The notes under the pieces are model-generated. The model saw only the letters and a list, made by a program, of their open reading frames with translations. It searched no databases and was not told where the DNA came from. A DNA stretch of 51,307 bases from a virus (taxonomy: Duplodnaviria; Caudoviricetes): the IMG/VR virus record IMGVR_UViG_3300027987_000471, positions 1 to 51,307 of that record. One strand, given 5' to 3'. Numbering within the stretch: the first letter of the stretch is position 1; the number at the start of each line of letters is the position of its first letter. Position numbers and translations under genes: made by a program. Positions 32,185 to 42,919 of this stretch are shown in pieces.

Positions 32185-34596
32185 ATGGATGTCTATCTTT
32201 TCGACAATATAAACTCGCCGCCCGCCGAAAAAGTAAGCGGAAATCCATCTGAAATACTTGATATTTTTGGGGACGAAGAGAAGTGCCCATCTGTTCTATG
32301 CAAAACAGAAGCGGACAAGCTCCGCGGTGCCGGTTTTGTTATAGCCAAGTACAAAGAGGGAAGTAGGACTAGAAAAATATCAGATTTAGCGCTGGATTCT
32401 TCTGTTCAAATACTGGTCTTGGATATAGATAATATCAACTTCGATCAGTTAGCAGAAGCTTGGCCGATTCTGTCGTCTTACGATTCTGTAGTCTATTCCA
32501 CATGGAAGCACACTCCAGACAATCCTAGAATTCGTTATATGGTGGCCTTGGATAAACCTGTACCTAACACCAACAAGAAACATTTTGAGGCAGTCTATCA
32601 AGCCGTGTCTCGGGCGCTAAAACTGCCCTACGATAAGCAAGCCAGCGATAGAGTGCGCTTCTTCCTCGGGCCTCAGCATCGAATAGAAGGAACACAAGAA
32701 CGGTATAGATTCAAAGGTCCACCTTTTCCGATATCGAAGATAGACGTAGCCGCAAGCGCCGCGGCTACTGAGAGAGACGAAACAGAGGCAGATGATGAAT
32801 TCCAAGTTACTGGAGACCGCCCAAAAAAGCAAGAACTAAAAAATCTGGCAAAAAAACTTCGGGATTCTCCTGTGCCGGCCTACAAAAAAATAGCAACTGC
32901 CGTCGAAGCTATATTGAGGGGCGAAAGCTACGCTCCGAAGGGTAGCCGGCACGCTACTACCCTAAAAGTAACTATGGAGTTGGTCAAAAAGTGGCCGCAA
33001 TTGGACGCTGAATGGTTTGCCGCGGAATACCTAGAGGCGGAATGTTGGCCCGAAATGTGGGCCGGCGAAGAAGCCGCTGCGATGCCTGATTGGTTGGGCT
33101 GCGTAAACGGCGCTCGAGAGAGAATAGCCGAATCTGAGGCCATGGCGGCTACTTTATCCAAGATGTTGGATCGATCCACTAAGGATGTCCCATTTTCCGC
33201 TTTAGGGGACAGAATAGGTAAGCTTATTCTAGCTCACGGCAACAGCTTCTATGTCTGGGATTTAGAGAAAAAAACATACACTGGGCCTTGGCCTGGAATA
33301 ACGCTACCAGTAGTTGTCCGAAATCAGCTAGGAAAAATAGAAGGTCTCAAGGAATTCAAAGAGACTAAAAGAGGTCGAACGATGAAGTCGCCTACCGAGC
33401 TGTGTCACGAATACGGAACCACGATCAAAGAAGTAATATTCTACCCAAATGATCCGCCTACAGTTCAAGACGAAGATACTCTATATCTGAAAGCTTATGA
33501 TTGGATTGCTTGGGAGCCTAAATTCCATCAGATAGCTGAGGAGCTTCTGATAGCCGTGGCGGGCCTTAGAGCCGAAGATCTTTTCGCCTATCTGTCTCAA
33601 TTTAGAAATCTGAATCAGCCGCTGCCGGCGCTAACTCTAGTCGGTGGGCCTGGTGTTTGGAAATCCCGAATCATGGAAATACTAGGCCGTTTCTGGACAG
33701 ACAAGGAGGTCAGTCACACAAATCGCGCCGAACATGCTCTTGCGAAACACAACACATGCCTCCTGAAAAACCCTACAATATGGTCTGATGAGCAACTAGT
33801 AAAGACTCCGATGGGTAAAGACCAACCAGAACTTTACAGGCATAGCATAACATCTCGAGTGCAGTTTATAGAACCGAAGGGGCTACCGATTGTCGCTTTG
33901 AAAACCGCGGCTCGGCATCTTGTTTCGGTAAACAGAGATAGTCACGTCTTCAGCTCTGAAGTCGATGCCGACTCTATTGTGGCGACAATGGAGCGCTTTT
34001 TATTGATTCACGTGAACGAGCCCGCAGTGGCAGCTTTTGAGGCGAAATGGGCAGGAACGGACGAACTTAATGTATTACGTGAGGGATCGTCTCTTTTAGA
34101 ATACATCAGATTTATTGAGGAAAACACCAACTTCAAGAGCGAAGGGCGTCTATTTGTTGCTCCTAGAGTAGATATGTCGGTATTGATGCGCAGCCGTTTC
34201 CGAAACGATATGTTGAATTATTTATGGCAGATCGCCCTAGACGCTATCGATTTCGAAACGCGCACATCGGTTCCTGGCCACATAGATAGGCTGCCTCTTG
34301 TAGTGGACCACTTAGGAAAGCTGCGCATATCTCCCGGGCGCTTACACAAGCTTTGGGCTACCTCTAAGGTTGTCGCCGGCTCGGGTCTGAAAAGGCCTAC
34401 CACGCAGCACATAGGACACCTGCTGACGCAAGCAGGATTCAAAAAGCACCGAAACGAACGCGCGACCAAGGCACCTACCGGTGGCTGGGAAGTAAATCTA
34501 AACACTTTCAAAGACTTTATGGAAGTTTCTGAAGTGATGAGCTGGGATGATTTTGTCTCTGCATGTTTAAAGGTATTCGGAAAGGAGCCAAAATGA
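32185..34596 (+). CDS. Primase-helicase (AEP-like N-terminus, P-loop NTPase C-terminus)
   Basis: VLDID and YSTWKH....PR.R motifs; Walker A-like GGPGVWKS, Walker B IWSDE, IEPKG and ERF. Confidence 0.82.
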   Translation: MDVYLFDNINSPPAEKVSGNPSEILDIFGDEEKCPSVLCKTEADKLRGAGFVIAKYKEGSRTRKISDLALDSSVQILVLDIDNINFDQLAEAWPILSSYDSVVYSTWKHTPDNPRIRYMVALDKPVPNTNKKHFEAVYQAVSRALKLPYDKQASDRVRFFLGPQHRIEGTQERYRFKGPPFPISKIDVAASAAATERDETEADDEFQVTGDRPKKQELKNLAKKLRDSPVPAYKKIATAVEAILRGESYAPKGSRHATTLKVTMELVKKWPQLDAEWFAAEYLEAECWPEMWAGEEAAAMPDWLGCVNGARERIAESEAMAATLSKMLDRSTKDVPFSALGDRIGKLILAHGNSFYVWDLEKKTYTGPWPGITLPVVVRNQLGKIEGLKEFKETKRGRTMKSPTELCHEYGTTIKEVIFYPNDPPTVQDEDTLYLKAYDWIAWEPKFHQIAEELLIAVAGLRAEDLFAYLSQFRNLNQPLPALTLVGGPGVWKSRIMEILGRFWTDKEVSHTNRAEHALAKHNTCLLKNPTIWSDEQLVKTPMGKDQPELYRHSITSRVQFIEPKGLPIVALKTAARHLVSVNRDSHVFSSEVDADSIVATMERFLLIHVNEPAVAAFEAKWAGTDELNVLREGSSLLEYIRFIEENTNFKSEGRLFVAPRVDMSVLMRSRFRNDMLNYLWQIALDAIDFETRTSVPGHIDRLPLVVDHLGKLRISPGRLHKLWATSKVVAGSGLKRPTTQHIGHLLTQAGFKKHRNERATKAPTGGWEVNLNTFKDFMEVSEVMSWDDFVSACLKVFGKEPK

Positions 34597-34932: not shown

Positions 34933-35103
34933 ATGGACGAATATAAATGCGAAAACTGCAAAGAGCAGATGCTTTTGCTGGATGAAGAAGACTGGATATT
35001 ATGGTGCCCAAACTGCGGCGCTTTAGCAGGCATTATAGGCCAAGTTTTCGTGACAAAAATACCTGAAAAATCTAAACCAGATTTAGACAAAAATAAAAAA
35101 TAA
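34933..35103 (+). CDS. 56-aa Zn-ribbon protein (not in the ORF track)
   Basis: AGGAG RBS; CENC...WCPNCG. Confidence 0.6.
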   Translation: MDEYKCENCKEQMLLLDEEDWILWCPNCGALAGIIGQVFVTKIPEKSKPDLDKNKK

Positions 35104-35985
35104 AATTTTACAACGACACTGCACTGCCTCTCTAGAAATCTGAAATCATTAACAAATAAATTGAGGGCCTATTCAAGCTATTGTAATTATTACGTTAAAC
35201 ATATAATGTAATTGTTACAGTATTTATGCGCACACAAACGTTGCATATATGCTATTTTTTGTTATGATATACCACATATGCAATGTGTAAATTTTACGAA
35301 TTATTTTAATTTTATGCTCTATATTATTCGCCAAAAAATACAAAAAACACCTGCCTCATATGAATTTTGTAAATTTATTATTTTTTATGACTTATTTGTT
35401 TTTCTATATGTACTGTAATAATTACAATAATATACCAAATACAATAAAATCAAGCACTTGAATAGGCCCGCAATTTATTTTCTAATGATTTCAGATTTTT
35501 ACAATTTTTATTTCGCCTATAAAAAATGTATCGGGCCTATTAATTAATATCTGGTTTAGATCAATAGGCCCAATTTATTTTCTATAGATATCAGCAAGTT
35601 AGCCTGCTATTTTGCAACATGCACTAAATGCCAAATATACAATTAGGCCTAGATAAAAACTAACGATTACAATGTGTTACATTCGATACGGGCCTATTGG
35701 CCTATTGCTAATAATTCGTATGAGGAAAATTATAAAAATTTTATATAATAAAAAAAGATCACGCAAAATCGCATGTGTGTTTTTTTCCTGAAGGGGAGTA
35801 TATAGCAATAGGCCAATAGGCCCTAATCATATCTATGTAGCCGTTATTGTTAATTTAATTCAGGGCCGATAGGGTTTGGCTCAATAGGCCTCAATAGGCC
35901 AACACTACGGAATTATTATGTTTTCATTTACTTCAATAGGCCAACTACTTGAAATTATTATATTTGAGCTTTTTGGAGTGAAAGT
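35104..35985. other. AT-rich non-coding region with nested inverted repeats; putative replication origin
   Basis: Longest gene-free stretch, downstream of the primase-helicase; about a dozen AATAGGCC/GGCCTATT copies; 42-bp and 21-bp inverted repeats. Confidence 0.65.
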
Positions 35986-35987
35986 TT

Positions 35988-36015
35988 TTGCATTTAAATC
36001 GAGTTGTGTTAAACT
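35988..36015 (+). promoter_or_regulatory. Putative promoter giving a leaderless ASCH mRNA
   Basis: TTGCAT-16-TAAACT with a TG extension; ATG 7 nt downstream and no SD. Confidence 0.5.
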
Positions 36016-36022
36016 GGTCGGT

Positions 36023-36526
36023 ATGAAGGTCTTGTCAATCAGAAATCCTGAGGCCTATTTGGTCGCGTTCGGCCTGAAAGACGTCGAAAATCGGACATGG
36101 TCTACAGATTATCGAGGAACCGTCCAAATCCACTGTAGCGGTCAACAGTCGTTTGTGTGGCCAGATTCGGACTGGTTGCCGGACGAGGTAAAGAGGATCG
36201 TTCAGGCGGCGATAGATGACGGTACACCGTACGGAGAGCTGCATCGGTACGCTAGAGGCTACGAGGATATGTGTCGGCACGCAGAAGCGGTTCTAGGCGT
36301 CTCAGAAGAGCCAGGAGCTGGTTTTGTAGATGTGCTGAAAAGAGCGTCCATTTTGCCTTTTGTAAATAAAGCAGTCGTAGGACAGTTCGATCTGGTTGAT
36401 ATTGTTAGAGATTCTATGTCTCCGTGGGCACAGGAAGGCTGCTATCATTGGCTAGTAGAAAATCCAGTAGCTTATGATGAGCCTGAGATAGGAGTAAAAG
36501 GCAAACTGCGGTTGTGGAACCGTTAA
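36023..36526 (+). CDS. ASCH domain protein
   Basis: MKVLSIRNPEA.LV..G.KDVENRTW.T.YRG...IH and C-terminal KGKLRLW; start reassigned to 36023. Confidence 0.9.
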   Translation: MKVLSIRNPEAYLVAFGLKDVENRTWSTDYRGTVQIHCSGQQSFVWPDSDWLPDEVKRIVQAAIDDGTPYGELHRYARGYEDMCRHAEAVLGVSEEPGAGFVDVLKRASILPFVNKAVVGQFDLVDIVRDSMSPWAQEGCYHWLVENPVAYDEPEIGVKGKLRLWNR

Positions 36527-36536
36527 GGAGCAGACA
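36461..36536 (+). repeat. 76-bp direct repeat, copy 1 (ASCH 3' end + RBS)
   Basis: 72/76 identical to 37082-37157. Confidence 0.95.
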
Positions 36537-36541
36537 CGAAA

Positions 36542-37147
36542 ATGACCGGATTGGTTAATAGAATGATAACAGCTCCGTATCCAATAAAGCACGCAGTTCG
36601 TTTTGTTGAGCAGACTCATCGCAGGCTTAAACATGCCCACCACCGTATGTGGGCAATCAGTCTATGGGTAGATGGGCAACTTCGGGGAGTGGCGTTGGTA
36701 GGCGCACCAAAAGCTAGGAAATTGGGTGTAGAACAGAAGGACAGACCATATCCGCCCGCTTATGACCGGCTGGAAGTAGTGAGAGTTGCTGTAGAGGAAG
36801 GAGTTCCTAATGGGTGTTCGATGCTGTACGGGGCATGTGCCCGCGCATCTCGCGCCATGGGCGTGTTAGACTTGCTCACTTACACAGATGAGGATGAGCC
36901 AGGAACAAGTCTTCGAGCTGCTGGTTGGATAGAAGATGATGGGCTTTTTGGAGGAGGTCAGGCCGCGCGACCGGCACGTCCACGCAGGATACGTACAGAG
37001 CAAGAAGCACAAATGCGTAAGAGATGGTGGGCTCCGTGGTCTCAGTCTGTCAAACAAAAAGATTTAACTTCCAAAGGAGGCAATCCAGTAGCTTATGATG
37101 AGCCTGAGATAGGCGTGAAAGGTAAACTGCGGTTATGGAACCGTTAA
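36542..37147 (+). CDS. XF1762-family / Mom-like GNAT-fold protein (candidate DNA base-modifying enzyme)
   Basis: FV...HR, GVA.VG.P.AR, LEV.RV, N.CSMLYGA..R...AMG, TYT...E.GTSLRAAGW and RKRW motifs. Confidence 0.75.
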   Translation: MTGLVNRMITAPYPIKHAVRFVEQTHRRLKHAHHRMWAISLWVDGQLRGVALVGAPKARKLGVEQKDRPYPPAYDRLEVVRVAVEEGVPNGCSMLYGACARASRAMGVLDLLTYTDEDEPGTSLRAAGWIEDDGLFGGGQAARPARPRRIRTEQEAQMRKRWWAPWSQSVKQKDLTSKGGNPVAYDEPEIGVKGKLRLWNR

Positions 37148-37157
37148 GGAGCAGACA
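37082..37157 (+). repeat. 76-bp direct repeat, copy 2
   Basis: Encodes the same 21 aa (NPVAYDEPEIGVKGKLRLWNR), stop and RBS as copy 1. Confidence 0.95.
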
Positions 37158-37486
37158 TGAAAATGGTTAGTGTACTTGTTTTGTTGATTTCGATTTTGGG
37201 TTGTGGCGGCGAGCCGTTGCAGTTGCCTAAAGTATCAATTCATACGTGCGATGAGGTAAAAGTGCATCTGCAGGAGATTGGCTGTATGGATTTTGAGCTG
37301 TGTGCTTCGTTGGTTGATGATGCAGTCGAGAAGTACATAACCTCTAGGCTGCCCGAGAATGTTCCGTTTGAGGCGTTTTGTGATATTGCGCTATCGTCCG
37401 GGTTGCTGCCGGTTGACTGTGTTATGCAGGCGGCGAAACCGGAAGAGGTTGTGGATTGTGGCAAATTGATGGCGCCCAAAAAATAA
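37157..37486 (+). CDS. Cys-rich lipoprotein
   Basis: MKMVSVLVLLISILG-C lipobox and six further Cys. Confidence 0.7.
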   Translation: MKMVSVLVLLISILGCGGEPLQLPKVSIHTCDEVKVHLQEIGCMDFELCASLVDDAVEKYITSRLPENVPFEAFCDIALSSGLLPVDCVMQAAKPEEVVDCGKLMAPKK

Positions 37487-37544
37487 TTTTGTGTTATTAT
37501 TAGTATGCTGAAGCGCTAAAACATCAGCAGAAAGGAGGCCCGTT

Positions 37545-37622
37545 ATGGATAGAAATCGCTCTCTTAGAGCCGGTCTTGCTGCTATTGGGCAAGGCAGTTC
37601 CGGCAGAGCAAGCAGGAAGTAG
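37545..37622 (+). CDS. 25-aa Arg/Gly-rich micropeptide A (MDRNRSLRAGLAAIGQGSSGRASRK)
   Basis: Strong AAAGGAGG RBS; not in the ORF track; paralogous to the next ORF. Confidence 0.7.
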   Translation: MDRNRSLRAGLAAIGQGSSGRASRK

Positions 37623-37624
37623 CA

Positions 37625-37711
37625 ATGAATTTATTCAGAAGACTTCGACAAGGCATTGCTCGGCTGTTTGGCCGCGGCAGAGGGCAAACAGCAAGATCTA
37701 CGCGAAAGTAG
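37625..37711 (+). CDS. 28-aa Arg/Gly-rich micropeptide B (MNLFRRLRQGIARLFGRGRGQTARSTRK)
   Basis: Starts 2 nt after the peptide A stop; its TAG abuts the next ATG. Confidence 0.7.
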   Translation: MNLFRRLRQGIARLFGRGRGQTARSTRK

Positions 37712-38371
37712 ATGCAGATTCTCCCACCCAAACAAGCCGCAGTGCTTAAAGAAGAGCCTGCGGCTGTCCTTTTTTCCGCTGGAAAAGATAGTATCGCGGC
37801 AGCCGATATTCTTCATAGAGAGAATCTGCTGCCAAAAGATTTTATATTTTTATATTTTGTTCCGGGTTTGTCTTTTGTGGAGTCTATTCTAAGACATTAC
37901 GAGAAAAAATGGAAAGTAAATATAATACGCAGGCCTTCGGATGAAGCTCTGAGTTTATTTTCTGCTATGCGCAACGTTCGTAAAAAGCAATATACAGAGT
38001 CGGATGCTATGGCGCTTATTAGAGCTGAGTTTGATAATGTTTGGCTAATATCGGGAGCAAAAAAGAAAGACAGCTTAGCTCGGCGCGGCATGCTGTCAAA
38101 GCTGGTTGATGGAGTAGATTCTAAGCGTAAGACTATTTACCCGATAATTGAGTGGTCGGATAGACAAGTTAATGCTTATTGCAAAAAGAACAGACTTAAG
38201 CTTCCTATAACATACGATATGGGCCTTAAAAATTCTATGTGGGTCCCGAATACCGAAGGCTTGGTTTGGATAAAATCAAATTTTCCGAAAGATTATGATA
38301 GAATAGTTAGATTTTTTCCTAATCTGGAAAGTCTAGTTTTCAAGTATAAGAGACAGTATGCCCGCGAATAA
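37712..38371 (+). CDS. PAPS-reductase-family (PP-loop) protein
   Basis: FSAGKDS PP-loop; G.KK.DS..RR and YPI..WSD..V..Y motifs. Confidence 0.88.
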   Translation: MQILPPKQAAVLKEEPAAVLFSAGKDSIAAADILHRENLLPKDFIFLYFVPGLSFVESILRHYEKKWKVNIIRRPSDEALSLFSAMRNVRKKQYTESDAMALIRAEFDNVWLISGAKKKDSLARRGMLSKLVDGVDSKRKTIYPIIEWSDRQVNAYCKKNRLKLPITYDMGLKNSMWVPNTEGLVWIKSNFPKDYDRIVRFFPNLESLVFKYKRQYARE

Positions 38372-39134
38372 ATACGAATCGTTCGAGCTTATTGTTATTT
38401 CTAGGCGCAAAATAAATTTAGCCGAATATAACCCTAGGCTGATTTCTGAAGATGCTAAGAAGAGACTAAGGCACTTCATCAAATCGAAACAGTTTGGTCT
38501 TCTGTCGCCTCTTGTGTGGAACGAGGTTACAGGAAACCTTGTTGCCGGGCATCAACGGATACAGATTTTGGATTCTTTGCATGGGCATCTTGATTATGAG
38601 CTTACTGTATCTAAAGTTCATCTTTCGGAAGAGGACGAAATCAAAGCGAATGTTTTTCTGAATAATTCATCGGCGCAAGGGCAGTGGGATTATGATGTTT
38701 TGACTCAGCTCGCAGATTTAGGCGATTTTGATTTTGAAAAAGACTTTGGTTTTTCTTCAGATGATGTTGAGGCTATATTTGGGCCTCCTGAAGAGGAATT
38801 AGAGGCGCTTGCGGCGGAAGGGATGCGGCAGCTGGAGGAGGCGATACCGTTGCCGGCTATGGCTGATAGCGCTGAATCTGAAGAGAATCTGAGTGCTTTA
38901 TCGGAAGAAGATGCTGAGAAGTTCAGGCAGCTTAAAAAAGAAGCTCGGGAGAAAGCGAAACTTGACAATTTAAATGGAGATGGGTATAGATTGAGTAAGG
39001 CCGATGTGACAGTGACAATAGTATTTAAAGATTCGGAAACGAAAAGAGGTTTTATGCGTCTGTTGTCGCGTCCCGAAAATGATCGAAACATAACTGCCGA
39101 GCATCTAATTGAGTGCATTGAGAATGGATTTTAA
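38358..39134 (+). CDS. ParB/Srx N-terminal domain protein
   Basis: A.YNPR, FG...P.VWN..TGN.V.GHQR and N....G.WD motifs; acidic linker and no HTH. Confidence 0.88.
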   Translation: MPANKYESFELIVISRRKINLAEYNPRLISEDAKKRLRHFIKSKQFGLLSPLVWNEVTGNLVAGHQRIQILDSLHGHLDYELTVSKVHLSEEDEIKANVFLNNSSAQGQWDYDVLTQLADLGDFDFEKDFGFSSDDVEAIFGPPEEELEALAAEGMRQLEEAIPLPAMADSAESEENLSALSEEDAEKFRQLKKEAREKAKLDNLNGDGYRLSKADVTVTIVFKDSETKRGFMRLLSRPENDRNITAEHLIECIENGF

Positions 39135-39135
39135 A

Positions 39136-39411
39136 ATGGCATGCAAATTTAAACACACTAAAGTGCAAGTTCCTGATAAAGATTATATTTGCCCTAAATG
39201 CAAGTCTACCGAATTTTTTATTATAGAATGCGAAAATTATGATTGTGAAAAACTGCATAATAACGATTTTATTCAGTGTGAGGATTGTGGTTATGAGATT
39301 TCGGGCTCTAGATTTGCTTCTATTTATATCAAGAAACAGCATTTAGTTAAATGTTCTCATTGCAAAGGTACAGGTTTTGTTGCAGAGATCAAAAATGAGA
39401 ATGGAAGATAA
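39136..39411 (+). CDS. Zn-ribbon protein
   Basis: CPKC, CEDC and CSHCKGTG motifs. Confidence 0.65.
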   Translation: MACKFKHTKVQVPDKDYICPKCKSTEFFIIECENYDCEKLHNNDFIQCEDCGYEISGSRFASIYIKKQHLVKCSHCKGTGFVAEIKNENGR

Positions 39412-39595
39412 GAAAAGAGAGATGCTTGATCTTATGCGTTCTGTATCAGGAAGGCCGTGGCTTAGCCCTAAAGAGTTAGGTATGGCGATGGGGCGACCTT
39501 ATTATTCAGCATCGGCTTTTGCTTGTCCTATCTTGAAAGCGCTTGTTGCAGAAGGTAAAGTAGAGAGCAATAGAGGAGTGTATCGATTATGCTAG
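39395..39595 (+). CDS. Winged helix-turn-helix protein
   Basis: LSPKELG...SA....IL..LV.EG.V....GVYRL pattern. Confidence 0.65.
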   Translation: MRMEDKKREMLDLMRSVSGRPWLSPKELGMAMGRPYYSASAFACPILKALVAEGKVESNRGVYRLC

Positions 39596-40325: not shown

Positions 40326-40362
40326 AAATTATCGGTTATTCCGATTTAACTATGAGGTGTAC

Positions 40363-42054
40363 ATGCGTAAATTTTTGGCATTGATTCTCTTTTTGGTCGG
40401 GTGCGATACAGATTCTTGTTTAGTGCCTAGAGATGCTGGGGATGTAGTTTGTATTCAAGTGTGTGCTGATTTGTCGAGCAGGAGGTGTATAGAAATATGC
40501 TATCCTGACGGCACCGATACCGATACGGACACAACTACTGTTTCCGAGGATGCTGGTGCAGCTAACAGCACGGAATTACAGCAAGAAACCGATACGGACA
40601 CGGACGCTAGTACGGAATTAGAGCAAGAAACCGAGCCGGACACCGATACGGATACGTCCGTTGTTTTAGACGATGCCGGTGTCGATGCATCGGTAGTGCC
40701 GCTGCAGAGCTATTTTGTTGATTCGGTTCTAGGTGATGATTCTAACCCTGGAACTTTTGAGCTTCCTTGGAGGTCTACCACACCTTTTTCGTCAGCAGAG
40801 CAAGCGCCGGATATTAGTCTGCAGCCGGGAGATACTGTATATCTTAGAGCCGGTATGTATACGACTGTCGCTCAAGGGACGGATAATATGTATGTTCCTG
40901 CGTGGCTAAATCTTCATTATGTTCACGGTGAAAGTTCGGCTCCTATCACGATTAGAAACTACCCGGGAGAACATGTAATTATCGATCCTGCTGGTCAAGG
41001 CATGGGAGTATTTTTTCTAAATTCGTCGTTTGTTAATGTTGTGGGTTTGGATATTAGAGAAGCTTACTACAGAGGGATTTCTGTAGATCTGAATTCTAAT
41101 GAGGTCAATATTGATCATTGTTCCATATCTAGTACGGATGGGTGGGTTGGAGACAACATAGCCGGTGTCGAATTCAGATTAGCTAAAGACTGTTCATTAA
41201 CAAACTCTATAATTTTTGATAATTATGATAGAGTATCGGCGGCGCAAAATAACCAAACTGAAAATAGCTGTAATGTGTTTCTTCACAGAGGCGAAGGGAC
41301 AATAACTGTAGCTGATAATGTTATTTACCAGACAGGAGAGCCCGGATCTGAATATTCCGGATGCGGGCTGAAGCATAAGCATTCTTCGGTGGACCATGAT
41401 TTTGAGCTTAGAGTAGAGCGTAATTATTTTGAGAATCATCGTTTTGCGGCTATTGGGATTTCTACTAACAATGCTGTAGTGCAGGATAATGTTGTTAACG
41501 GAGTGTATAACTATTCCGGTTGGGGGCCTGGTCACGCTATCGATTTTAGGGATTGGGGTGGTCTTACCCATCTAACCGGCGCTAGAGTCGATCACAATAC
41601 AGTAATTTCAGATAAGCCTTTTTTCTTTTATCCTACAGATATTAATTCTGAAGGTGAAGGTGCGCCATGGGAGGATTTGAGCGATAATGTTGTCTCGGAT
41701 AATGTTTTTGTGGCTACTGATTCGAATGTGCAAGATCCGCCCATAGAAATCTACACTGCTATCGATGATAGAATCTATGAGTTGGCCGCGGCAGGAACTA
41801 GTTTTGAAGGAAATTGTTATTTTCTACAGACTGGCGGCGATATGCAGTTTGGCTTTGCCGAAGATACTTCGTTTGGCGAGTTGGGAGGCCGGTATGATTT
41901 TTTAGGATGGCAGCTGGAGTACGGTTGGGATTTTGACGGTTCTGAAGGAGATCCGCAGCTAAATTCGTCTTTTATGCCGACCTCGGAAAGTTGTAGCGGA
42001 AAAGGAGTCAGATCGGTTATAAATAGATCTAAGGTGTTTGTGCCACCAATGTAA
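40363..42054 (+). CDS. Lipoprotein with Asp/Thr-rich linker and right-handed beta-helix (pectin-lyase-like) domain
   Basis: MRKFLALILFLVG-C lipobox; DTDTDT repeats; YFVD...GDDSNPGT...PW...PGDTVYLRAG.Y and PbH1-type repeats. Confidence 0.82.
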   Translation: MRKFLALILFLVGCDTDSCLVPRDAGDVVCIQVCADLSSRRCIEICYPDGTDTDTDTTTVSEDAGAANSTELQQETDTDTDASTELEQETEPDTDTDTSVVLDDAGVDASVVPLQSYFVDSVLGDDSNPGTFELPWRSTTPFSSAEQAPDISLQPGDTVYLRAGMYTTVAQGTDNMYVPAWLNLHYVHGESSAPITIRNYPGEHVIIDPAGQGMGVFFLNSSFVNVVGLDIREAYYRGISVDLNSNEVNIDHCSISSTDGWVGDNIAGVEFRLAKDCSLTNSIIFDNYDRVSAAQNNQTENSCNVFLHRGEGTITVADNVIYQTGEPGSEYSGCGLKHKHSSVDHDFELRVERNYFENHRFAAIGISTNNAVVQDNVVNGVYNYSGWGPGHAIDFRDWGGLTHLTGARVDHNTVISDKPFFFYPTDINSEGEGAPWEDLSDNVVSDNVFVATDSNVQDPPIEIYTAIDDRIYELAAAGTSFEGNCYFLQTGGDMQFGFAEDTSFGELGGRYDFLGWQLEYGWDFDGSEGDPQLNSSFMPTSESCSGKGVRSVINRSKVFVPPM

Positions 42055-42069
42055 AGGAGGCGTTATGGG

Positions 42070-42324
42070 ATGCGGAAAAACAAAGAAAAAAGGCGGAGGC
42101 GGAAGGAAAAAATGAGCTGTGCGGATACCGGTCATATTCTAGTTGAGGAGCTAGATCATATAAATGGTCCAGGTGTATTGCTTATAAAATGCCTGCTTTG
42201 TGGTAGCGTTTTAGCTAGTATGCCCACACAATGGTCGGCTCTTGTGTCTCCTGTAGTTATTGAAGATAGAATTTGTGCGAAGTTTAACGGAGTTGGTGGG
42301 CAGTTTGGGGAAGCACGACGATAA
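42070..42324 (+). CDS. Hypothetical protein (alternative start 42112)
   Basis: AAGGAGG RBS; C...GH and CLLCG motifs. Confidence 0.5.
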   Translation: MRKNKEKRRRRKEKMSCADTGHILVEELDHINGPGVLLIKCLLCGSVLASMPTQWSALVSPVVIEDRICAKFNGVGGQFGEARR

Positions 42325-42919
42325 GATTCTGCCGGATGGTAGCATAGACTATCGAGCCAGAAGCGGAAAGAAGCGGAAGGACCTTCGCTATAAACTGGCT
42401 ATTTGGAACAGATCTCCTGAAGAGACTGATGAGGAATTTCATATCTATCGAGTCTTTAGAGATATGGAGCCGGATGATCGTGATTTTCAAGAGTATGTGA
42501 CGAAGAACGGCTATGATCTTGATTATGTTAATAGTCTATATGAAAAGCATAATTGGGAAACTAGAATAGACGCTTGGGATTCATCGGCGCGTGCCCGATT
42601 GGCTACTAGGCAGGCGATGGAGGCGCGCCGGATGAAGGCCAATCATGCAGCGGTAGGGGCTGCTATGCTTGCTGTAGCCGCTAAGCAGCTGGGCAGATGG
42701 AATAGCTTGCCGCCTGATGCAGACCCCATGCCGGTGTATCACCTTGTTAGTTTAGCTCAGACAGGCGTAGCGATAGAGCGTTTATCGAGAGATTTACCTT
42801 CGGACGAGACTACAGTTAACGTCAAATCAGATCTTGACCCAACAAAATTATCTGTTGAGGATTTAGTAAAACTCAGAGAGCTGAGAAGAAAAGCGCGAGT
42901 CGTTAAGGAAGATGAATGA
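42260..42919 (+). CDS. terS: Terminase small subunit (start uncertain)
   Basis: W.R...ET...F..Y..FRD and W..R..AWD motifs, C-terminal D..KLS.EDL; overlaps terL. Confidence 0.7.
   Translation: MKIEFVRSLTELVGSLGKHDDKILPDGSIDYRARSGKKRKDLRYKLAIWNRSPEETDEEFHIYRVFRDMEPDDRDFQEYVTKNGYDLDYVNSLYEKHNWETRIDAWDSSARARLATRQAMEARRMKANHAAVGAAMLAVAAKQLGRWNSLPPDADPMPVYHLVSLAQTGVAIERLSRDLPSDETTVNVKSDLDPTKLSVEDLVKLRELRRKARVVKEDE

Follow-up and report, generated by a model that had tools for sequence, protein, structure and literature searches.

Why should a tailed phage keep two very short, basic open reading frames (ORFs) pressed against the start of a gene for an enzyme resembling PAPS (3'-phosphoadenosine 5'-phosphosulfate) reductase? 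The question is raised by the IMG/VR virus record IMGVR_UViG_3300027987_000471, whose 51,307 nucleotides (nt) constitute the virus record analysed here, are referred to as the window, and supply all coordinates given below unless another locus is named. Within it, two micro-ORFs, P1 and P2, run into a gene for a PP-loop enzyme, which in turn overlaps a gene for a ParB-N protein; an earlier note, made from the DNA letters, had singled out this arrangement as a candidate new system. The reading preferred here, to which we give a probability of roughly 0.55, is that P1 and P2 are small basic proteins occupying the slot of a dedicated partner in an IbrA/IbrB-like nucleic-acid-modifying module located before the terminase genes. 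The features on which the argument turns are as follows:

37530-37538, + strand: Shine-Dalgarno (SD) motif GAAAGGAGG serving P1, 6 nt before the P1 ATG (read from the sequence)
37545-37622, + strand: micro-ORF P1, 25 amino acids (aa), net charge +5, C-terminal Arg-Lys, stop TAG
37625-37711, + strand: micro-ORF P2, 28 aa, net charge +9, C-terminal Arg-Lys, stop TAG
37712-38371, + strand: gene for a predicted PP-loop ATP pyrophosphatase of the PAPS-reductase fold, 219 aa, Pfam PF01507 at 30 bits (cut-off 22.5)
38358-39134, + strand: gene for a predicted ParB-N protein (CTPase/Srx fold), 258 aa, with an acidic linker and a conserved C-terminal region

Two micro-ORFs ahead of a PP-loop gene

The micro-ORFs are chained to one another and to the gene behind them. 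The ATG of P2 stands 2 nt past the P1 stop, with AGGAAG in front of it, and the PP-loop ATG (37712) follows immediately upon the TAG of P2 with no AGGAG/GGAGG-type SD of its own, while the far end of the PP-loop gene overlaps the ParB gene by 14 nt. P1 and P2 align to each other with a local alignment score of 46 (z = 6.0), a value matched by 1 of 5000 composition-preserving shuffles, and they appear from their sequences to be a tandem duplicate in this phage lineage. The earlier note had described twin unannotated paralogous ORFs behind a strong ribosome-binding site, tightly coupled to a PAPS-reductase-like gene that overlaps a ParB-N gene; this description was confirmed to the exact coordinates, and both the twin frames and the SD motif recur in a related phage.

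That relative, an IMG/VR contig of similar size (L001), is the sole close one found, and a degenerate DNA pattern for P2 run across viral contigs recovered it alone. Its PP-loop protein is 64–66% identical to that of the window; four further close PP-loop homologues (P0002-P0005) are 59–67% identical. L001 keeps the P1 and P2 frames in the same order and retains GAAAGGAGG before P1, and the DNA further 5' does not align. Between the two phages, P1 matches at 17 of 24 aligned positions and P2 at 20 of 28. Synonymous codon differences number 12 in P1 and 11 in P2, non-synonymous ones 7 and 8, and nucleotide differences at codon positions 1/2/3 come to 8/5/14 and 11/4/15 respectively. Overall identity amounts to 71% for the peptides, 66% for the PP-loop protein and 53% for a lipoprotein-like gene further upstream. 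The conserved position, the coding signature and the coupled stops and starts make it very probable that P1 and P2 are translated and that their function is bound up with the PP-loop/ParB pair. Sequencing reads from one DNA run yielded assembled contigs over 38219-38708 only (the ParB gene), with none over the micro-ORFs. A complex prediction combining the PP-loop protein, the ParB protein and P2 scored 0.01, which for a partner of fewer than 30 residues counts neither for nor against an interaction.

The earlier note had also drawn attention to a small hairpin ahead of the SD motif:

37506-37529, + strand: TGCTGA/TCAGCA hairpin, 6 bp, present but weak

Its minimum free energy is -8.7 kcal/mol, where shuffled versions average -13.0 and 197 of 200 of them are equally stable or more so; it has no counterpart in L001, where the region is unalignable. 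The hairpin exists, then, but it is neither significant nor conserved.

Several regulatory roles for P1 and P2 were considered and rejected. Arginine codons exchange frequently between AGA and CGN from the window to L001, which dismisses attenuation at Arg codons, and a leader-peptide attenuator or regulatory upstream ORF is dismissed on the same unconserved codons together with a hairpin weaker than its shuffles and terminator-like sites no more frequent than chance. A promoter scan gave nothing above chance either. An Rfam search over 35000-39500 gave no match in the micro-ORF region. Read-through into a P2::PP-loop fusion, which in the window would be in frame with a single TAG between, was likewise rejected: the corresponding genes of L001 are out of frame, 14 of the 61 unique peptide genes described below lie in the PP-loop frame, and TAG is not enriched as a peptide stop (9/61, against 13/61 for PP-loop genes).

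The same slot in other phages

The arrangement is found well beyond the window. Upstream of PP-loop homologues lies a short basic ORF rich in Gly, Ser and Ala, which ends at or near the PP-loop start and usually has AGGAGG or GGAGG before it. A strict filter for such ORFs was positive at 8 of 22 PP-loop genes and at none of 144 other long ORFs, and a looser one at 17 of 21 ParB-linked and 10 of 33 ParB-less PP-loop loci, as against 35 of 270 background starts (Fisher p = 6e-11 versus background). A scan with a ParB profile (alignment A2) brought in 80 viral loci, in 77 of which the PP-loop gene stands beside the ParB gene, and the automatic filter was positive in 67 of the 93 eligible PP-loop + ParB loci; the upstream scan for Arg/Gly-rich ORFs that the earlier note had put forward as a check thus came out in its favour. 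When 11 filter-negative loci were read by eye, eight proved to hold a comparable ORF missed by the filter and three did not. A single small basic protein occupies the slot in most phages that carry the PP-loop + ParB-N pair, and the unit reads (ASCH) - small protein(s) - PP-loop enzyme - ParB-N, between replication and terminase genes.

The junctions in these loci, whose GC content ranges from 33 to 68%, resemble those of the window. An SD-like motif lies 4–13 nt upstream of 42 of the 61 unique peptide genes; the distance from the ORF end to the start of the PP-loop profile has a median of 10 nt and is at most 12 nt in 39 of 61; and TAATG or TGATG is seen at many peptide/PP-loop junctions. One further pair of peptides, from loci L025 and L050, is identical at 27 of 32 residues, with 12 synonymous and 5 non-synonymous changes.

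Cultured phages of Riemerella, Bacteroides, Lactobacillus and Gordonia also carry the PP-loop + ParB pair. In Bacteroides phage BS-TP2, an ASCH protein (gp52) is followed by a 53-aa 'hypothetical' protein (gp53), a PAPS reductase (gp54), a ParB protein (gp55) and then the terminase genes, and in Riemerella phage RAP44 an unannotated 44-aa basic ORF fills the gap; in both phages the module lies immediately 5' of terS/terL. Lactobacillus phage LR1 has no small basic ORF in the slot. As a separate observation, the LR1-type loci L054, L102 and L132 hold an acidic ORF of 68–71 aa in this position and an extra gene between the PP-loop and ParB genes. On a contig from a Prevotellaceae metagenome-assembled genome (L049, 707-874), a stop-to-stop frame resembling BS-TP2 gp53 is without ATG, GTG or TTG and has an ATG one frame off, which may reflect an assembly indel or an unusual start.

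Family statistics were drawn from 59 unique peptides, with the window and L001 excluded. Cys occurs in three of these. The peptides have a median length of 46 residues and a median net charge of +9 (range +3 to +15). In a large clade they open with M..(I/L)Q(R/K)RI(N/E)R.TG(V), continue through basic residues and close at the stop with (F/Y)RR(K/R)S.GG.GG; a second clade follows GG.VGRGG.F.TR.QRY.DMR.AFG...G. C-terminal Gly is found in 34 of the 59 (shuffle mean 8.9) and C-terminal Gly-Gly in 20 (mean 1.45), counts that none of 2000 within-peptide shuffles reached. The extreme C-terminus of the wider family is under selection. A by-product of SD sequences embedded in the last codons was rejected as the source of the Gly-Gly end, an SD-like motif being present there in only 10 of 34 cases, and the terminal Gly codons are mostly GGC or GGT, as elsewhere in the peptides. 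Pfam and PHROG contain no family matching any of 20 peptides tested, an ESM Atlas search with the L048 peptide gave a best score of 0.78, under the threshold for a lead, and no published account of the small protein was found in the literature searched, supplementary files excluded.

These regularities bear on two readings in which the peptides themselves would have no role. In the first, the ORFs simply keep an SD-less PP-loop gene supplied with ribosomes, and their peptides have no function. The PP-loop gene is indeed without a strong SD in both the window and L001, and abutting or overlapping stops and starts are common across loci, but such leaders leave too much unexplained: conservation at the amino-acid level, with synonymous changes exceeding non-synonymous ones; the same basic Gly/Ser/Ala-rich make-up over the full span of GC contents; clade-wide motifs, for instance IQRRINR.TG close to the start and a terminal RRKS.GG.GG; and an excess of C-terminal Gly that SD sequences do not account for. 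Free swaps between AGA and CGN codons also exclude conserved codon-specific stalling, and we regard pure translational coupling as quite improbable. In the second, the ORFs are unexpressed products of chance, a reading that can appeal to their very small size and their absence from family databases. Against it stand the coding signature, the SD motifs, the positional enrichment and the 50 database protein clusters, none meaningfully named, that match the family profile at E <= 1e-3; it is barely credible.

The preferred reading, in which P1 and P2 fill the slot of a dedicated partner, has to be weighed against a number of contrary points. When the window's 624 small ORFs are ranked with a hidden Markov model (HMM) of the 59 peptides, neither P1 nor P2 comes among the first 12; the best pairwise comparisons reach z of about 4 at most, with P1 against the L025 peptide at z = 2.0 (220 of 5000 shuffles); and Met1 is the sole invariant column across the peptides. 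P1 and P2 end in Arg-Lys and not in Gly, so that the family's C-terminal signal is not carried to the window, nor do they have the Gly-Gly end of ubiquitin/ThiS/Pup-like modifiers. Gly and basic C-terminal types switch between closely related loci, which argues against one strict C-terminal chemistry. The enzyme pair occurs without such a peptide in the LR1-type loci L054, L102 and L132 and in L117 and L120, near-identical loci among the 93 inflate the per-locus counts (hence the 61 unique peptides), and the codon test for P1 and P2 draws on a single close relative, L001. P1 and P2 are thus linked to the wider family by position, size and composition, and not by any homology that their sequences show.

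It was on the order of the genes that the earlier note likened the locus to a unit for ribosomally synthesised and post-translationally modified peptides (RiPPs), in which the PP-loop enzyme would turn the precursors P1 and P2 into a free bioactive peptide. Lasso-peptide cyclases are PP-loop-type enzymes that act on peptide carboxylates, and a precursor beside its enzyme, in precursor-then-enzyme order, with tandem duplicated small genes and a family C-terminus under selection, is what is seen here. What is missing is the rest of such a system: Pfam, PHROG and fold searches of the neighbours gave no RiPP recognition element (RRE) or PqqD-like domain, protease, exporter or immunity gene. The peptides show no leader/core pattern and, Met1 apart, no invariant residue, they rarely contain Cys, their composition is basic and disordered, and the module lies in phages beside terminase genes among nucleic-acid-related domains. 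The RiPP-like reading is not supported by this comparison and is considered very unlikely.

The enzyme pair and its surroundings

On the strength of its motif and fold, the PP-loop protein can be placed in the PP-loop ATP pyrophosphatase superfamily. The PP-loop motif F21-S22-x-G24-K25-D26 is invariant in an alignment of 12 sequences (A1), and the AlphaFold2 model (mean predicted local distance difference test, pLDDT, 86.7) matches TtuA, PAPS reductase and TilS at template modelling (TM) scores of about 0.5, and GMP synthetase too, with E-values from 2e-7 to 2e-5. The sequence matches phrog_424 (E 1e-20), PADLOC gave only a weak QueC match (E 1.2e-3), and PF01507 alone was detected, with no DUF3440 match before the protein ends at residue 219. 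CysH has a conserved catalytic cysteine near its C-terminus. No Cys is invariant or near-invariant in the PP-loop family, either in A1 or in an alignment of 50 sequences (A6), and the window protein scores 22.3 bits against the curated CysH model NF002537 (cut-off 154) and 20.8 bits against TIGR02057 (cut-off 254.2). Identity as CysH/PAPS reductase was rejected on these grounds; because no Cys is conserved and the CysH scores are low, the protein is neither a PAPS reductase nor an Fe-S enzyme of the DndC or TtuA type.

The PP-loop profile matches 966 representative proteins at E <= 1e-10. Six representatives, among 25 examined of 150 listed, carry basic N-terminal tails in cis, 13–18 residues long with a charge of +4 to +7. 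Another, P0157 (305 aa), has an 83-residue N-terminal extension with CxxC...H motifs, resembling an HNH-type zinc finger.

The fold matches raise the further possibility that the small protein is a TtuB/Urm1-like sulfur carrier, its C-terminal thiocarboxylate feeding a PP-loop thiolation. TtuA is the top match of the model (E 1.9e-7), the TtuA-TtuB complex 5gha is among the matches, and a Gly-Gly end is found in a third of the family, in the 20 peptides counted above. Such a role is nevertheless highly improbable: without an invariant Cys the PP-loop family has no Fe-S or persulfide site, no E1-like or desulfurase gene was found in the module (Pfam, PHROG), 25–60 residues of this composition cannot form a beta-grasp fold, and the window peptides are without the Gly-Gly end.

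The ParB protein, for its part, is predicted from sequence and fold matches to have the ParB/Srx (ParB-N CTPase) fold with its nucleotide-pocket motifs, of which Y-N-P-R and G-H-x-R are invariant. It matches phrog_9353 (E 2.7e-51), phrog_620 (E 4e-24) and the methylase N-domain family phrog_498 (E 2.8e-20), Pfam ParB_N is matched by 11 of 18 members of its family, and its closest folds include ParB-CDP (6sdk, E 3.5e-6) and sulfiredoxins (E 0.02–0.05). Canonical partition ParB proteins carry a centromere-binding helix-turn-helix and a C-terminal dimerisation domain and act with a ParA partner. Here the C-terminal 70 residues gave no confident fold match and none that was RRE-like, Pfam found no helix-turn-helix family on the window protein, and no ParA-like gene was found among the neighbours scanned with Pfam and PHROG.

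The other partners of this ParB-N subfamily are informative. It is fused to DNA methylases in Bacillus phage B83 (gp68), Listeria phage B054 (gp77) and Streptococcus phage Javan630, and it matches the N-region of PADLOC MTase_II; the ParB-N domains of these three phages and of Enterococcus phage phiEf11 are 34–44% identical to that of the window over some 120–135 residues. The methylase and Mom versions stand at the matching point of their genomes, towards the end of the early/middle region and ahead of the packaging genes, and none of the four ParB-methylase or ParB-Mom loci has a small basic ORF. From these pairings, and from the missing small ORF in them, we infer that the ParB-N protein serves DNA-modifying enzymes and that the small protein goes with those ParB modules whose enzyme is of the PP-loop kind; across phages, the ParB-N domain has the look of an adaptor shared by DNA-modifying enzymes of several types. 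Two of these loci may be described further. In Javan630 (L061, 809-3197) the ParB-N domain is fused to an adenine methylase and a gene for S-adenosylmethionine (SAM) synthetase lies upstream, and in phiEf11 (L060, 1962-3078) the ParB-N protein is paired with a Mom-like protein.

The same pairings bear on whether the peptides might be free polycationic binders of nucleic acid (DNA-condensing, packaged in the virion or acting as chaperones) that share an operon with the enzymes and work independently of them. Their charge, their richness in Arg and Gly and their closeness to packaging genes would suit such a role. Yet the peptide gene tracks the PP-loop version and is absent from the methylase/Mom versions at the same genomic position, and its tight stop/start coupling is specifically to the PP-loop gene, which leaves independent action improbable. 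The earlier note had offered, as its other option, that the basic peptides are carriers or DNA-binding cofactors for a DNA modification linked to packaging or anti-defence; this is plausible, and it fits the methylase/Mom pairings and the place before the terminase genes.

How the module would work on the preferred reading, with the small protein as the PP-loop enzyme's dedicated partner, can be sketched as follows. Ribosomes loading at the P1 SD would translate P1, re-initiate at P2 and do so once more at the PP-loop gene; because the starts are chained, the PP-loop gene is without a good SD and the ParB gene overlaps it, the four products would be made together and the peptides would be at least as abundant as the enzymes. 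The PP-loop enzyme, following general PP-loop chemistry, would use ATP and adenylate an oxygen on its substrate; since no Cys is conserved, it would be expected neither to reduce PAPS nor to work through an Fe-S centre or a persulfide as DndC and TtuA do. Judging from genomic context, the ParB-N protein would be a nucleoside triphosphate (NTP)-dependent, DNA-engaging partner, and the target would be nucleic acid of the phage, with DNA close to the packaging stage the likeliest candidate.

As to what the small protein contributes, we tentatively entertain a role as co-substrate or carrier: its C-terminus would reach into the PP-loop active site and become activated there, a route that is less sure for the window peptides because they end in Arg-Lys rather than Gly-Gly. 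A role in trans, as an accessory tail that binds nucleic acid, is possible, if rather doubtful. A more specific scheme, in which the PP-loop enzyme adenylates the C-terminal carboxylate of the peptide and ligates the peptide to a target held by ParB-N, the ASCH protein then reading or trimming the adduct, is distinctly unlikely. Under that scheme the target could be an exocyclic amine of phage DNA, amounting to DNA hypermodification by a ribosomal peptide, or it could be a protein lysine, amounting to a phage tagging system like Pup or ubiquitin built on a PP-loop enzyme.

The genes of the module lie on the + strand between a primase/helicase-like gene with an AT-rich stretch on one side and terS on the other. 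The surrounding features are:

32185-34596, + strand: primase/helicase-like gene
36023-36526, + strand: ASCH-domain gene, 167 aa from the ATG at 36023, phrog_3193 (E 3.5e-24)
36454-36544: 91-nt direct repeat, copy 1, comprising the ASCH 3' end, the intergenic spacer and the next start
36542-37147, + strand: Mom-like/XF1762-family gene, phrog_1384 'Mom-like' (E 7e-23)
37075-37165: 91-nt direct repeat, copy 2, 91% identical to copy 1 (repeat search, family D1)
37157-37486, + strand: lipoprotein-like gene, 109 aa, Cys-rich, with a lipobox-like LGCGG (lipoprotein-type signal)
42260-42919, + strand: terS, with larger late genes downstream

The earlier note had placed the system next to ASCH and Mom-like genes, and of these two neighbours the first is a recurring one. 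The window ASCH copy by itself is without a Pfam match, the call resting on the family profile (alignment A5), which matches ASC-1 ASCH structures in the PDB (E 2e-9); Pfam ASCH (PF04266) is matched by 7 of 9 family members. Of the 93 eligible loci, at least 24 have a match to a clade-specific ASCH profile 5' of their PP-loop gene, and ASCH is a recurrent upstream neighbour of the PP-loop/ParB module.

The Mom-like gene, which scores 103.8 bits with NCBIfam XF1762_fam (cut-off 50) and 23 bits with Pfam Mom (cut-off 27.1), was rejected as a member of the module. It is missing from L001, where the lipoprotein-like gene lies directly 3' of ASCH; it is flanked on both sides by the 91-nt repeat, its final 21 residues being a copy of the ASCH C-terminus; and its residues 1–180 were unmatched by tblastn in every other fetched locus. 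It is a window-specific insertion and not a conserved part of the module. It looks as if the cassette came in recently, through a duplication that took in the 3' end of ASCH and the start region behind it. The lipoprotein-like protein has no Pfam or PHROG match, and its gene was found, among all the loci, on the L001 contig only.

Other observations concern the flanks. The sequence AATAGGCC occurs 13 times in the window, and 12 of these copies, in both orientations, fall in the AT-rich non-coding stretch at 35100-36060, between the primase/helicase and ASCH genes; about 2 copies are expected by chance and none of 100 shuffles reached 13. The stretch also contains several long inverted repeats, and it may be an origin or an array of regulator-binding sites. 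Directly 3' of the ParB gene, 39136-39411 encodes a 91-aa protein with several CxxC zinc-ribbon motifs, and 40357-42054, 5' of terS, encodes a right-handed beta-helix protein of 565 aa that has a lipoprotein signal and contains Thr-Asp repeats.

Significance and known systems

The pairing of a PAPS-reductase-like gene with a ParB-like one is common in phages, where the enzyme is usually labelled 'PAPS reductase', and its named relatives YbdN and YbdM are also uncharacterised. A conserved, coupled and previously unnamed small basic third component, often with a selected Gly-Gly end, makes this opaque pair testable, and the main value of the finding lies in an unrecognised small-protein partner of a known but unsolved phage module. 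There is also a consequence for viral ecology. Many 'cysH/PAPS reductase' genes in viromes are counted as sulfur-metabolism genes; should the enzyme's substrate prove to be peptide or DNA and not a sulfate ester, it would be wrong to count genes of this kind as viral sulfur-metabolism genes.

Among known systems, the lasso-peptide cyclase and the MccA/MccB pair of microcin C7 also place a short ribosomal peptide just 5' of an ATP-dependent adenylating enzyme. The window differs from both in having no RRE, protease, exporter or immunity gene and in its packaging-proximal phage context. In tRNA thiolation by TtuA-TtuB or Ncs6-Urm1, a PP-loop enzyme is fed by a small protein ending in Gly-Gly. 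The window module resembles them in combining a PP-loop enzyme with a small protein, and its wider family does so in having a selected extreme C-terminus, but it is without the Fe-S cysteines, its partner is a basic, probably disordered peptide of 25–60 residues rather than a beta-grasp protein, and P1 and P2 have no Gly-Gly.

In DNA phosphorothioation, according to PMC10853773, a ParB-superfamily protein (DndB) and a PP-loop ATP pyrophosphatase (DndC) act together on DNA; the window pairs proteins of the same two kinds. DndC is described there as holding a 4Fe-4S centre by three cysteines and as having a cysteine dyad in addition. The PP-loop family of the window, with no invariant Cys, does not share this hallmark, and no homologue of DndA, DndD or DndE was found in the module by Pfam, PHROG or PADLOC.

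Phage-enriched fusions of the ParB-CTPase fold, methyltransferases among them, are listed in PMC12704722, in which none of the PAPS-related terms looked for occurred. The fusions of ParB-N to methyltransferases and the ParB + Mom pair of phiEf11 share with the window the ParB-N subfamily, the genomic place and the coupling to a DNA-modifying enzyme. They differ in that the window's ParB-N is coupled to a PP-loop ATP pyrophosphatase instead of a methylase or Mom protein, and the small basic gene is found in the PP-loop version only.

IbrA and IbrB are co-activators of prophage gene expression. With IbrA/IbrB of Escherichia coli ECOR-9, YbdN/YbdM of strain K-12 and lambda NinC, which we take to be linked to PHROG 424, the family matched by the window enzyme, the closest named relatives are reached. 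The IbrA/IbrB and YbdN/YbdM pairs, like the window, join a gene of the PAPS-reductase fold to a ParB-like gene and are linked to phages or prophages; in PMC9068703, YbdN and YbdM figure simply as a putative PAPS reductase/DUF3440 protein and a putative ParB-like nuclease protein. The IbrA/YbdN type carries a C-terminal DUF3440, whereas the window enzyme is only 219 aa long and does not extend into one. What sets the window apart from IbrA/IbrB is, finally, its layout: the enzyme gene precedes the ParB gene, the two overlap by 14 nt, and before the enzyme stands the gene for a small basic protein.

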